A DNA stretch of 64,000 nucleotides from an uncultured Spartobacteria bacterium (GCA_903929475.1 CAIYUV010000236.1:12573-76572); one strand, 5' to 3'; shown: positions 35,951-39,379, counted from the stretch's first letter. Notes: a model not told the origin generated them from the letters alone. Translations and numbers: made by a program.

Positions 35951-36007
35951 CCTGATCTTCTGCTCTCGCAGCGCAGTTGAAACGCTGAATCACCGCCGGA
36001 GGCGTTG

Positions 36008-36641
36008 ATGGAAATTAGCCGGTGGCGAGCGAAGCGACCCCACCGGAACCGCCAAAAAAAGGCGTGCGCCCCGGATGGGGCGGGGGAAAATGCCGCCATG
36101 CCCTCGACTCATCTCAGCCTGCTGCATTACCACATCATCTTCGCCACGAAGGAACGCCGCCCGTTCATCGCCCTGGAATGGCGGGAACGGCTCCACGCCT
36201 ATCTCGGCGGCGTTCTCCGCGAGATGGACGCCATTCCGCAATGCGTGGGTGGTGTCGCCGACCACATCCATATCCTTGCCGGGTTGAAAGCGACGCATTG
36301 CCTCGCGGATGTGATGCGCGATCTCAAGCGCGCCTCGTCCGAGTGGGTGCATGAGACCATCGGCGACCGCGCGTTTGCGTGGCAGGAGGGCTACGGCGCA
36401 TTCACCGTCAGCGCCTCCATGCGCGAGGGATGTGCGGCATTACATCGAACGGCAGGAGGAGCACCACCGCACACGCACCTTCCGGGAGGAATACATCGAG
36501 TTCCTCCGCAAGAGCGGTGTGGAGTTCGATGAGCGGTATCTGGATTGAACCGCGTGTTCCCGCGCCCCATCCGGGGCGCATCCGGTTTTTTCCGTCCCGA
36601 TCCGGTGGGGTCGCTTCGCTCCGCCACCGGCTAATTTCCAT
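36008..36641 (+). mobile_element. REP-RAYT-REP unit (copy 2, different REP family)
   Basis: The ~80-bp terminal inverted repeats are 36008-36086 and 36559-36641. The outer 40 nt are identical apart from one 1-nt indel, and the inner 18 nt (tgcgccccggatggggcg) are identical. Each arm contains ccggtgg...ccaccgg and cgcccc-ggat-ggggcg hairpins. Confidence 0.8.
36098..36548 (+). pseudogene. REP-associated tyrosine transposase (IS200/Y1 family), frameshifted
   Basis: MPSTHLSLLHYHIIFATKERR, HUH motif ADHIHILAG, WQEGYGAFTVSASMRE. DVRHYIERQEEHHRTRTFREEYIEFLRKSGVEFDERYLD then continues in the +1 frame after the GGG run at 36427-36429. Confidence 0.75.
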
Positions 36642-36740: not shown

Positions 36741-36926
36741 ATGAGCACCAAGCAAATCGTTCAAGACCTGCTCCAAAAACTCCCCGAGGATGTCTCGCTC
36801 CACGATGTCGCCCAGGAGATTGAGTTTGTGGCGGGGGTGCGGCAGGGGCTTGCCGAGATTGACCGTGGCGAGCGCATTCCGATTGAGGAAATCGAACGCG
36901 AATTGCCTTCATGGGTTATCAGGTAG
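36741..36926 (+). CDS. putative type II antitoxin
   Basis: 61 aa. Overlaps the downstream ParE/RelE-type gene by 16 nt. Acidic C-terminal half (EIDRGERIPIEEIERELP) resembles the antitoxin at 30552. Confidence 0.6.
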   Translation: MSTKQIVQDLLQKLPEDVSLHDVAQEIEFVAGVRQGLAEIDRGERIPIEEIERELPSWVIR

Positions 36927-37216
36927 CACTCTCACCTTCCGCCCGGCGCGACCTTCGCGACATCGTCCGTTACATCTCGCTGGACTCACCGGAACGCGCG
37001 CTCACCTTCGGCCAGTTCCTCGTCAGCAACACCAAGCGGCTCGCTGATTTCCCGGAGATGGGGAGAGTTGTGCCCGAGTTTGATGATCCTTTCATTCGCG
37101 AGATTGTTGTGCGGTCCTACCGGGTCATCTATCGCGTCAATCATGAGGAATGCCGTGTGGATGTTGCCCGATTCTGGCACGGCGCTCGCGGGGCTCCTGA
37201 AATCGAAGGCGTCTGA
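36911..37216 (+). CDS. type II toxin, ParE/RelE family
   Basis: 101 aa. ARRDLRDIVRYISLDSPERA, YRVIYRVNHEECRVDVARFWHGARG. Confidence 0.8.
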   Translation: MGYQVALSPSARRDLRDIVRYISLDSPERALTFGQFLVSNTKRLADFPEMGRVVPEFDDPFIREIVVRSYRVIYRVNHEECRVDVARFWHGARGAPEIEGV

Positions 37217-37355: not shown

Positions 37356-37640
37356 ATGCTTTCCGCCCATTATCGCAAATTGCAGCGCGAGACCGAAGCC
37401 TACGCAAAACGGTTCACCAAACACCTCGCTGCGCTTCTGTATTCCGCGCGGGTGGAGCGGGGCTTTTCGCTGAGGGCGCTCGAGCTGGAATCGGGCGTTC
37501 CGCGCAAAACCATCCGGCGCATCGAGCTTGGGAAAATCTCCCCGAAGCTGCCAGCGCTCATCCTGCTGGCGGATGCGTTGAAGGTGTCGTGGGTGAAGTT
37601 GCTGGCACGGGCGGACAAGTTGACGGACGGCGCTGCGTAA
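37356..37640 (+). CDS. XRE-family helix-turn-helix protein
   Basis: 94 aa from the ATG at 37356. HTH core FSLRALELESGVPRKTIRRIELGKISPKLPALILLADAL. The upstream part of the track ORF (from 37068) overlaps the toxin gene in another frame. Confidence 0.7.
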   Translation: MLSAHYRKLQRETEAYAKRFTKHLAALLYSARVERGFSLRALELESGVPRKTIRRIELGKISPKLPALILLADALKVSWVKLLARADKLTDGAA

Positions 37641-37945
37641 AAAAACCGGCGGGGTCGGGGCGACGATGGTTTGGGATGAAAAACTTGTTCAAAACCATCG
37701 CTAACGGGCGGTTCATTTGCGCGGGGGATTGGGGTGTGGATGATGCGGGGTATGAAAACGCAGCCACATTCATTTAAGCCCGCCGGGGTCGGCTTCGGCG
37801 CTGAGGCGGTGGGCGGTTTTCCGGGCTTTGGGCGGGCGGGGTGGAACCACGAAGGCGCGAAGGGCACGAAGTTGCGGGACGGGTTGTGGCGGACGGATTG
37901 CGGAATGGGGGCGGACGCGGGTTTGGATGGGCTGTTTTCGGGAAA

Positions 37946-38365
37946 AGGGGTGCTCTTCTCTGTTGGTGGGGTGGCCCCACTTCTTCCGGGGGCGGCCCCG
38001 TTTGAAAAGGGGGCTCCCCCTTTTCAAAAGGTTGCGTCCAAACTTCCGGCGGGGTCGTCCAAACTCGGCGCGGGGGCGTCCACTTTGGAAAAGGGGGCGT
38101 CCCCTTCGCTTGCGGGGGCGTCCCCTTTGCTGGCGGGGTGGCCCCCTTTGGTCGCGGGGGCGTCCACTTTGCTTCGGGGGGCGTCCCCTTTGCTTGCGGG
38201 GGTGCCCCCTTTTGCTGCGGGGGCTCCCCCTTTTCTCGCGGGTGCGTCCAAACTCCGCGCGGGGTCGCTACCTTTCCGCGCGGGGGCGTCCACTTTTCTG
38301 CGGGGGGCGTCCCCTTTTGGCGCGGGGGCGTCCAAGAACGTCGCGGGGAAGCCCCCTTTTCCCGC
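37946..38365. repeat. tandem array, 20 x 21 bp, consensus GGGGGCGTCCCCTTTGCTTGC
   Basis: Units read off directly, with unit boundaries every 21 nt from 37946 to 38365 and no indel. No stop codon in any of the six frames. Confidence 0.9.
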
Positions 38366-38503
38366 AGGGACGCTGTGCTGCCTGCCGGTGTCGCCCTCCG
38401 ATTTGTCGCTGCTGCTGTTGCTGCGTCGCTCCCTTTCCTTCCCGAACGCCAAACAAACCAAAAACACAAAACAAACAGTAAAACACCACAAACACACAGA
38501 ACC

Positions 38504-39205
38504 ATGAAACGTCAAAATTACTACCCCGGTCGCATCGGGGACCAGCCGACATGGCTGCTTAAATTAGCGACTCAACTGGCCATCTACGCGCCCAACCTCT
38601 CCATCTCGCAGACGGACACGTCCGCGTGTATTGATGATGCGCGCTGGTGCGCCTACGTGCTCGGCCTCTGGCTGGCGACGGTGCGCGCCTTTTCACCCGT
38701 CTCGACGGATGCGGTGGATGCGGTGCTCACGGGCAATGGCAATTCCCCGGTAGTGCTGCCCACGTTTAACACACCCTCGCTGCCCAACGGCACGGCTCCG
38801 CGCAACCCGGGTGCGCTCACGCGCATCTTTACGATGGTGGGCCGGATCAAAAAAGACCCCGCCTACACCGAGGCGATGGGAGACGACCTCGGCATCATCG
38901 GCTCGGAGGAAGCGGCGACGCACCCGACGCCCAAATTCACCGCCGAGATGCAGCAGGGCATGGGCGTGCAGGTGGCGCGCCTCGCGTTCTTCAAATTCAC
39001 GCACGCAGGCGTGTTAATCGAAGGCCGTCGCAACGGCGGCGCATGGGAGTTCCTCGGCATAGACACCGAAAGCCCCTATCTGGACGAGCGCCCGCTGCTC
39101 ACCCCCGGCACCCCCGAAGTGCGCGAATACCGCATGCGCTTCTGGGACAAAGGCACCCCCAACGGCCTCTACACCGATGTAGCGACAGTGACGATCAGCG
39201 CATAG
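38504..39205 (+). CDS. hypothetical protein (233 aa), no recognisable family
   Basis: ATG at 38504 after an A/C-rich leader. Non-repetitive, balanced composition (MKRQNYYPGRIGDQPTWLLKLATQL...EVREYRMRFWDKGTPNGLYTDVATVTISA). Followed by a hairpin plus T-tract. Confidence 0.65.
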   Translation: MKRQNYYPGRIGDQPTWLLKLATQLAIYAPNLSISQTDTSACIDDARWCAYVLGLWLATVRAFSPVSTDAVDAVLTGNGNSPVVLPTFNTPSLPNGTAPRNPGALTRIFTMVGRIKKDPAYTEAMGDDLGIIGSEEAATHPTPKFTAEMQQGMGVQVARLAFFKFTHAGVLIEGRRNGGAWEFLGIDTESPYLDERPLLTPGTPEVREYRMRFWDKGTPNGLYTDVATVTISA

Positions 39206-39233
39206 GCGCCGGGAGGGATTTTGTTGGGTTGGC

Positions 39234-39270
39234 GGGGCGCGCTCTTCACGGGGCGCGCCCCGTTTGTTTT
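39234..39270 (+). terminator. intrinsic terminator candidate
   Basis: ggggcgcg (39234-39241) pairs with cgcgcccc (39254-39261). 12-nt loop, followed by gtttgtttt. Confidence 0.6.
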
Positions 39271-39379
39271 CGGGGAGCGGGGCCTGATTGATGACGCCTG
39301 CGTTGCCGTGGGCGGACTGATGTTTCGGTCGCCACCGCGCATCGCCGCTTCGTGCAGAATACGGGTTGCTAGCAGGTGG

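Follow-up and report, generated by a model that had tools for sequence, protein, structure and literature searches.

The stretch of DNA analysed here, referred to throughout as the window, comprises 64,000 nucleotides from an uncultured Spartobacteria bacterium (GCA_903929475.1 CAIYUV010000236.1:12573-76572). It carries a tandem array of twenty 21-nt units that lies within an open reading frame (ORF), here termed X, whose stop codon overlaps the start of a conserved gene, here termed Y; a small gene for a helix-turn-helix (HTH) regulator of the XRE family precedes both. Our comparisons indicate that selection holds the X frame open up to Y, despite an apparent lack of constraint on its amino acids or codons. 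The features of the locus, counted from the first letter of the window, are as follows.

37356..37640, + strand: XRE-family HTH regulator gene, 94 aa, first of the cassette (Pfam HTH_3, E=1.3e-11)
37672..37751, + strand: conserved 5' block, probable promoter/operator, including ..GCTAACGGG..CGCGGGGG.. (about 37700-37728)
37740/37752..38507, + strand: ORF X, the 'GASPLLA' frame, about 250 codons, containing the array
37946..38365, + strand: 20 x 21-nt array, read as heptad repeats in the X frame, core GCGGGGGCGTCC
38366..38439, + strand: pyrimidine-rich post-array segment, with the A/C-rich tract the best-conserved part of the leader
38440..38503, + strand: A/C-rich tract before the Y start, encoding the X C-terminus here and part of a Y extension elsewhere
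38504..39205, + strand: gene Y, 233 aa, a conserved protein family found only in Verrucomicrobiota so far
39231..39274, + strand: intrinsic terminator-like hairpin and T-run after Y, with a 15-pair stem (11 G-C) followed by TGTTTTCGGG

The array keeps a single register from 37946 to 38365 on the + strand. Stacking of the sequence in 21-nt steps yielded 20 units with zero indels, and Tandem Repeats Finder reported a period of 21, with super-periods of 63 and 84 nt, over 37988-38334 and nowhere else in the window. The initial annotation of this DNA was correct in describing 20 indel-free units, and also in regarding the array as specific to this locus within the window: the consensus unit (up to 3 mismatches) is matched 4 times versus 0.0 expected from shuffles, and GGGGNNNNCCCCTTT, representing a G4-N4-C4-TTT pattern (up to 1 mismatch), 23 times versus a shuffle expectation of 0.96, with the matches to both essentially confined to the array. 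The proposal that conservation within the units is not codon-like and lacks a 3-nt periodicity was confirmed by the column entropies, the mean column information of the 20 units being equal over the codon phases (1.06/1.06/1.05 bits). Departures from the consensus do cluster in columns 8, 11-13 and 16-19, as had been described, but columns 20-21 are conserved in just 14 of the 20 units rather than nearly invariant, and unit 1 is degenerate. Nor is the array open in all six frames, as had been claimed. Three frames are fully open, and each of the others has one stop (a + strand TGA at 38003-38005, in the frame of Y, and minus-strand stops at 38024-38026 and 38268-38270). Nor does the G4/C4 dyad attributed to the units stand out in the window: shuffling the consensus unit gives dyads as good as its G4-N4-C4 (p=0.33).

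Change in the array proceeds largely by whole units. Decayed units reach back 5' of the array to about 37883. The closest relative of the window, locus L081, whose Y is 81% identical, has an array of 19 units that differs by one clean 21-nt deletion and several unit replacements; a further 21-nt indel lies at 37885-37905, and the leader indels between the two loci measure 21, 21 and 18 nt. The units run head-to-tail, without the unique spacers that separate the repeats of a CRISPR array, and have no further copies in the window of the kind expected from dispersed repetitive extragenic palindromes (REP) or bacterial interspersed mosaic elements (BIME). The covariance models of Rfam 15 gave no match at gathering score in the window and eight related loci, and only chance-level matches at E<=10.

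Scanning of one genome per species retrieved 80 related loci (numbered here with the prefix L), commonly 2-5 per genome, and the X frame stands out among them. Over positions -540 to -95 in 42 aligned loci, this frame contains 8 stops in 3 alignment columns, compared to 53-146 stops in 22-49 columns for the other five. When frames are defined relative to the Y ATG, the array is stop-free in the X frame in 90% of 58 arrays, versus 48% and 34% for the other + frames. In the window X has possible ATG starts at 37740, 37743 and 37752, the last of which aligns with an ATG conserved elsewhere that opens the X frame in 31 loci, and its stop (TGA, 38505-38507) overlaps the Y start codon as ATGA. The last bases of X are ATGA or GTGA at 64 of 67 loci, where the TGA overlaps the start of Y or of its 30-residue extension. 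The frame relation differs in L002 and L084, where the end of X still falls 10-20 nt before Y. The length of X varies from 160 to 310 codons, and gene callers predict it with the 4-nt overlap at L081/L082, at the P0122 locus and at L085. The depletion of stops together with the A/GTGA junction indicates that X is translated, or at minimum that stops in X are selected against, and hence that the array sits within a reading frame that appears to be held open by selection and that runs into Y.

Other ways of reading through the array were set aside. The array is not an N-terminal extension of Y, since stops in frame with Y occur 6-45 nt before its ATG in L001, L002, L003, L005 and L065. A gene on the minus strand was rejected on account of the many stops present in all three minus frames over the loci, and a programmed frameshift joining X to Y was rejected as a general mechanism because the Y frame closes shortly upstream in most loci.

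The peptide itself does not appear to be what is maintained. Diversity by codon position in nine related loci is 0.195/0.201/0.202 in the leader compared to 0.061/0.040/0.267 in Y, where substitutions are clearly biased to the third position. The first 50 codons of X, which are not repetitive, gave 0.459/0.456/0.444 over 31 loci. Between the window and L081, differences fall 25/24/27 by codon position in the leader and 25/26/47 in Y, and a synonymous excess was seen in no frame. The base composition and codon usage of X are consistent with these results. GC content by codon position over 67 loci is 0.68/0.68/0.71 in X, with no rise at the third position (GC3), versus 0.61/0.48/0.83 in Y. GGG makes up 64% of the Gly codons of X and 14% of those in reference genes of the window, and CCT 37% and 6% of the Pro codons, respectively. 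A score resembling the codon adaptation index (CAI) is 0.48 for X, which is below all 25 reference genes (0.58-0.77) and not above the other five frames of the same DNA (0.36-0.53). Protein searches with X found no family and one partial match, from a candidate list saturated by low complexity. X thus seems to be without amino-acid or codon constraint despite its open frame. An ordinary low-complexity coding sequence had been considered from the outset, and of that idea the open frame stands, whereas every test for protein-level selection was negative.

What is shared among the arrays is their period and, less strictly, a nucleotide pattern. When periods from 9 to 45 nt were compared for 69 regions upstream of Y, 21 or 42 came out best in 67, and 64 reached an autocorrelation of 0.58, a value found in none of 73 control regions downstream of Y. 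Tandem Repeats Finder gave a period of 21, 42, 63 or 84 upstream of Y in almost all loci, with units that are very different, such as GGAGATGAGTCCATGGAGGCG (x19), CAAGGGACTCCGCCGTTCAGT (x14), CAGAGAACCGCGGACTGAAGC (x15) and CGGTCCCCGACGAGCCGGGAC (x13). Alignment of 52 arrays by rotation of their 21-nt profiles produced an average unit of CGGGG-N4-CCCC, and 42 of the 52 have it in the same codon phase as the window. The G-run crosses a codon boundary and fixes the rare GGG, so a constraint on nucleotides fits better than one on glycine. Many arrays read G-x-x-P-x-x-x in the X frame. The heptad profiles of unrelated arrays are, however, no more alike in this frame (0.148) than in the other five (0.129-0.158), which places the likeness of the arrays at the DNA level. 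All four G4/C4 pairs can form in 23.5% of units versus 19.8% in within-array shuffles (z=3.9), a weak excess, and variant dyads such as GGTA..TACC occur. In the closest pair, the leader as a whole diverges by 9.5% compared to 14% for Y, and the part of the leader from 38366 to 38503 by 3.6%.

Gene Y had been called an orphan, a description that its homologues contradict. A word-indexed search found 291 of them, and a profile search (E<=1e-3) placed the family at about 2,070 representatives at 50% identity, usually with several copies per Verrucomicrobiota genome. The homologues have no Pfam domain or informative name, and the few with a named source come from Verrucomicrobiota. Y itself has no match in Pfam, NCBIfam, PHROG or PADLOC, and a sequence-profile search of the PDB was empty. 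An AlphaFold2 model with a mean predicted local distance difference test (pLDDT) score of 87 predicts an N-terminal helical bundle followed by a C-terminal FN3-like sandwich. Fold searches with this model returned generic FN3 domains only, and one with an earlier, poor model (pLDDT 61) was without matches. The protein P0121 (238 aa) of locus L083 falls in the 90% cluster of the window Y, yet its DNA looks unrelated and lies beside a DDE transposase; it was set aside as a relative of Y, as probably a clustering artefact.

The A/C-rich tract immediately before Y is predicted to be unpaired in the minimum-free-energy fold. It contains a repeat of period 21 with 1.9 copies (Tandem Repeats Finder, 38461-38499) and an 18-nt duplication or indel relative to L081, and comparable A/C-rich repeats lie 5' of Y in most loci. 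A metagenome scan with the post-array segment of the window gave no match. In most Y homologues the protein begins with an N-terminal extension of 30-35 residues (MNWDTGTWDSGFWD..) made up of W-D-x-G-x repeats and a K/Q/P-rich linker, which occupies -110..-1 relative to the MKRQ start (for example in L017, L040 and L048). The clade of the window is without this extension, and the equivalent A/C-rich DNA is read there in the X frame. The extension has a diversity by codon position of 0.21/0.18/0.335 in nine related loci and by this measure behaves as coding sequence. The internal M/V of MKRQ remains a start-capable ATG or GTG in all loci, which makes two isoforms of Y possible.

The array had also been proposed as a site for the XRE protein, and this was not borne out. 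Similarity between arrays, measured as shared 7-mers, has a partial rank correlation of 0.24 with Y when the HTH is controlled, and of 0.003 with the HTH when Y is controlled. The HTH type follows a different element, within the conserved 5' block. A CTAAC..CGCGGGG..GTGCTnnAAT motif is found in 31 loci about 60 nt ahead of the conserved ATG, and directly 5' of its TAAC, also about 60 nt before the X ATG, lies a 6-4-6 palindrome of 16 bp that covaries with the HTH type. Its half-sites change together: 85% of cells pair, compared to 69% in shuffles, none of 500 of which reached that value, and 13-50% in slid controls. In all 25 typed loci, the form of the palindrome matches the type of the HTH recognition helix, as follows.

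HTH type ..SRDTISRIE..: half-sites GTCC..GGAC, 11 of 11 loci
HTH type ..SREYIGKIERG..: half-sites GTCA..TGAC, 6 of 6 loci
HTH type ..DQTILN..: half-sites G/CCCA..TGGC, 8 of 8 loci

Written in full, the predicted palindromes of the three types in related loci are GTCCGA-N4-TCGGAC, GTCA(A/C)C-N4-xTTGAC and GCCAAA-N4-TTTGGC. The match persists at loci where the HTH type disagrees with the Y/array clade (L049, L037, L039, L046 and L047), and L085 agrees with the third pair. These covariations indicate that the HTH does not read the array and that its predicted site is the separate promoter palindrome. The window HTH is of a fourth type, and the corresponding 16 nt (37686-37701) form no palindrome; a candidate operator in the window is TGAA-N7-TTCA (37677-37691), which L084 shares. 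Between the HTH stop and the conserved CTAAC, at 37661-37700, an inverted repeat of 9 bp (CGATGGTTT..AAACCATCG) flanks a 19-nt spacer; it is not conserved in L081 or L084.

The HTH gene, array and 233-aa gene, first suspected to belong together in the initial annotation, do recur as a unit. The order of this cassette is XRE-HTH gene, promoter/operator block, ORF X holding the array, A/C-rich tract and gene Y. ORF clustering across the loci identified a small XRE-HTH gene on the same strand as the sole conserved neighbour of Y, and this gene lies about 650-950 nt 5' of Y in at least 51 homologous loci, the position that it also has in the window. Ahead of a related cassette, L084 has a copy of the window HTH gene that is about 90% identical. 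The 1 kb available for L082, a close relative, shows no HTH gene where one would usually lie; homology between the window and L082 begins only near 37672, and the upstream neighbour of L082 differs. The start of homology at this point suggests that the HTH gene and the X-Y unit recombine as separate modules. In the same way, the Y genes of L061 and L062 are almost the same and their arrays alike, but their HTH proteins differ.

The plasmid- or integrative-element-like setting that had been envisaged, and with it an iteron- or centromere-like array, is not supported. HTH-X-Y cassettes are chromosomal and multi-copy with varied neighbours, only the X frame is spared stops, no Rep initiator, ParA or ParB gene was found around the window array or among the conserved neighbours of 76 loci, and viral contigs (IMG/VR) contain no relative of Y and so give no sign of phage origin. 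In the window, the XRE-HTH gene lies upstream of the array, preceded by ParE and a Y1 transposase directly before the cassette, and HflK/HflC lie downstream. The transposase gene, of the Y1/IS200-like type also described as a REP-associated tyrosine transposase (RAYT), is at 36005-36532, 1.4 kb upstream of the array, and no gene of the RAYT type is among the gene clusters common to homologous cassettes. The ParE toxin gene is at 36911-37216, with a short overlapping ORF before it (36741-36926) as a possible antitoxin, and the order ParE-HTH-X-Y was found again in a second assembly. Other short tandem repeats accompany some cassettes. L018 has 8-nt tandem runs of GAGACTAG/GGAGACTT (x4-8) at -821..-678 relative to Y, opposite near reverse-complement runs of CGTCTCCT/TCTCCAAG. 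Such facing runs, which form long imperfect inverted repeats and lie either 5' of X, after the HTH gene, or in the interval from the array to Y, are likewise found in L047, L052, L057, L058, L046 and L048, and 7-nt tandem runs (GATTGCG, AACCAAG) in other loci. Many cassette copies also lie at a contig end or no more than a few hundred bases from one, mostly on the array side (L004, L005, L028, L035, L051, L060, L064, L066, L070, L071, L075, L077 and L079); short-read assembly may be disrupted by the arrays or by the several copies of Y.

From these comparisons, we tentatively favor, while allowing it somewhat less than an even chance, the reading that X is a repeat-bearing leader ORF that evolves rapidly, is translated and is coupled to Y, and that its array acts at the level of nucleic acid. 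X and Y would be carried on one transcript, running from a promoter in 37672-37751 to the terminator at 39231-39274, and the HTH would repress this promoter through the overlapping palindromic operator. Ribosomes would have to translate X across the repeats to reach the ATGA junction, and their passage would keep the long leader covered and bring ribosomes to Y, or free the Y start. The repeats would act as nucleic acid, most likely in the mRNA, either as phased weak G-C hairpins or as repeated binding motifs that set the rate or passage of ribosomes, and the peptide from X would be largely irrelevant. Gain, loss and homogenization of units in 21-nt steps would renew the array with its frame intact.

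Several results weigh against a translated leader with an active array. The bias toward the X frame is a weaker signal when loci are grouped conservatively, with 16, 10 and 5 of 23 sequence clusters open in the three + frames. The full 4-bp stem is possible in no more than about a quarter of units, and only 8 of 77 arrays have a dyad symmetry above that of their shuffled consensus units. The minimum free energy of the leader has no consistent + strand preference (the + strand being more stable in 27 of 66 loci), and the leader of the window is only modestly more stable in its fold than 20 shuffled versions (z=-2.8). Its lower divergence in one pair could come from recombination rather than constraint, and the promoter block contains no match to a sigma-70 consensus. 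A Shine-Dalgarno-like motif precedes the first ATG in only 3 of 27 confident window genes, and the organism appears to initiate translation mostly without Shine-Dalgarno sites. Given this scarcity and the unstructured A/C-rich tract that Y has of its own, Y may do without any coupling.

The same data bear on several other explanations, of which the most serious, though still on the unlikely side, is that X encodes a functional protein. This would be a disordered or simple-solenoid protein of heptad repeats, loosely G-x-x-P-x-x-x, and perhaps a multivalent partner of Y, for which all that matters is periodicity, composition and one or two residues in each heptad, and in which concerted evolution blurs the signatures of coding. 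A frame that is open and overlaps the Y start, a conserved ATG and a period that is always 7 codons would be expected of such a protein, and ORF X is called by gene finders in several assemblies. The combination of Gly at position 1 of the heptad with Pro at position 4 is present in 28 of 52 arrays, which use differing Pro codons, and in comparison with four of the other five frames the X frame is poorer in Arg (9.7% versus 16-18%) and richer in G/A/S/P. Yet substitutions are flat over codon positions even in the non-repeat N-terminus, GC3 does not rise, and the codons used are no better than those of the off-frames, with a strong preference for the rare GGG that fits a G-run over a Gly codon. 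Unrelated arrays are no more similar in the X frame than in others, and no family or clear homologue of X emerged from protein searches. The opposite position, that the array is a functionless, self-perpetuating minisatellite in which only openness matters and 21 is fixed by descent and the frame constraint, accounts for a sequence of X that evolves almost neutrally and turns over quickly (372 of 621 locus pairs with similar Y share almost no 7-mers), for arrays that span from homogeneous (92-95% unit matches) to decayed (about 60%), and for the abundance of other short tandem repeats (7, 8 and 15 nt) at these loci. We consider this doubtful. An array of 21 or 42 nt is present in 67 of 69 loci of deeply diverged lineages, in which Y is only 47-60% identical, and other multiples of 3, such as 18 or 24, do not occur as its period; the common G4-N4-C4 pattern is moreover held to one codon phase, and the leader of the closest pair is less diverged than the third codon positions of Y.

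Two further explanations make the array a binding platform, and we regard each as quite improbable. In one, it is double-stranded DNA, iteron-, operator- or centromere-like, which silences or organizes the locus through sites every two helical turns that are bound by the XRE protein, Y or another factor. The spacing is right, as 21 bp is two helical turns; an HTH gene adjoins the array (at least 51 loci), the sequence of the array follows the Y clade, and some arrays contain perfect even-length, loop-free palindromes (GTAACGTTAC, GGGACCGGTCCC, CCGTTGAGCTCAACGG and GGTAGGCCTACC). This explanation leaves the single stop-free frame unaccounted for. In addition, the array is unrelated to the HTH type once Y is controlled (0.003), whereas that type pairs one-to-one with a separate promoter palindrome, dyads are non-significant in most arrays, including that of the window, and the cassettes are chromosomal, with varied neighbours, without Rep, ParA or ParB genes and with none in viral contigs. 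In the other, which is an equally long shot, the cassette's own Y binds a multivalent array in the X-Y messenger or DNA, where short G-C hairpins or motifs would follow one another in phase. Binding would serve autoregulation, assembly of Y on its own transcript, or packaging; the array would have co-diversified with Y in each paralogous cassette, and translation of X would continually reset the array-Y complex. If true, the cassette would represent a new type of RNA-protein module, self-addressed and specific to Verrucomicrobiota.

Comparison with known systems separates the locus from those that it most resembles at first sight. Plasmid iterons and partition arrays, such as parC of R1 and the heptad arrays bound by omega of pSM19035, are helix-phased direct repeats of about 20 bp near a gene for a small DNA-binding protein, and the window likewise has 21-bp direct repeats beside a small HTH gene. 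Unlike iterons, which are non-coding direct repeats of about 17-22 bp, the window repeats lie inside a frame that is apparently kept stop-free by selection, and no initiator (Rep) gene adjoins them or is among the conserved neighbours of 76 loci. Unlike parS/parC centromeres, they have no gene for a ParA-type ATPase or a centromere-binding protein in their surroundings in the window or among the conserved neighbours, and unlike an operator array of the adjacent XRE-HTH, they do not covary with the HTH, as the promoter dyad does. REP/BIME elements with their RAYT share the tandem G+C-rich dyads and a RAYT-type gene 1.4 kb upstream, but here the units are inside an ORF and are not dispersed in the window, and the RAYT-type gene is not common to the cassettes. 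In multi-hairpin sponge RNAs of the CsrB/RsmZ type, too, a single transcript repeats a short motif many times, which offers a possible analogy for multivalent binding; the array, unlike these, has no GGA-loop motif and no Rfam match, and is apparently translated. Where the features that define iterons, partition sites, CRISPR arrays and Rfam families could be examined, the window array did not show them.

Its closest analogues are coding minisatellites and leader ORFs that are long and coupled to the gene that follows them. As at ATGA operon junctions and in the leaders before tnaA and ermC, the stop of X overlaps the start of a conserved gene (64 of 67 loci), and as in leader ORFs read for their translation rather than their product, the frame appears to be maintained without conservation of amino acids. 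X differs from leader ORFs of 10-30 codons in its 160-310 codons, its tandem array of fixed period and its lack of a known sensing motif, and the coupling proposed here is deduced from sequence. With coding minisatellites X shares a unit that is a multiple of 3, copy number that changes by whole units (20 versus 19 in the closest relative) and the homogenization of different unit variants in different lineages; it differs from them in that there is no sign of selection on the peptide and in that the period is conserved across the phylum while the unit sequence is replaced. An ordinary coding gene with tandem repeats would have the same open frame with conserved start and stop, but X shows neither the third-position bias, nor the GC3, nor the codon usage of such a gene.

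The locus is unusual in combining a fixed period with a free sequence, in a frame that appears to be held open without constraint on its protein. HTH-X-Y is an abundant, multi-copy module of Verrucomicrobiota that is undescribed in Pfam, NCBIfam, PHROGs, PADLOC and the searchable literature, as is Y itself, and it offers a predicted regulator-operator code in which three HTH types correspond to three palindromes. Gene finders will call frames such as X hypothetical proteins, and tests of coding potential will reject them. If X is indeed a translated leader, it would provide a clear example from nature of a long frame that is kept solely so that it is read, and in which the period of an array, and not its sequence, is preserved across a phylum.

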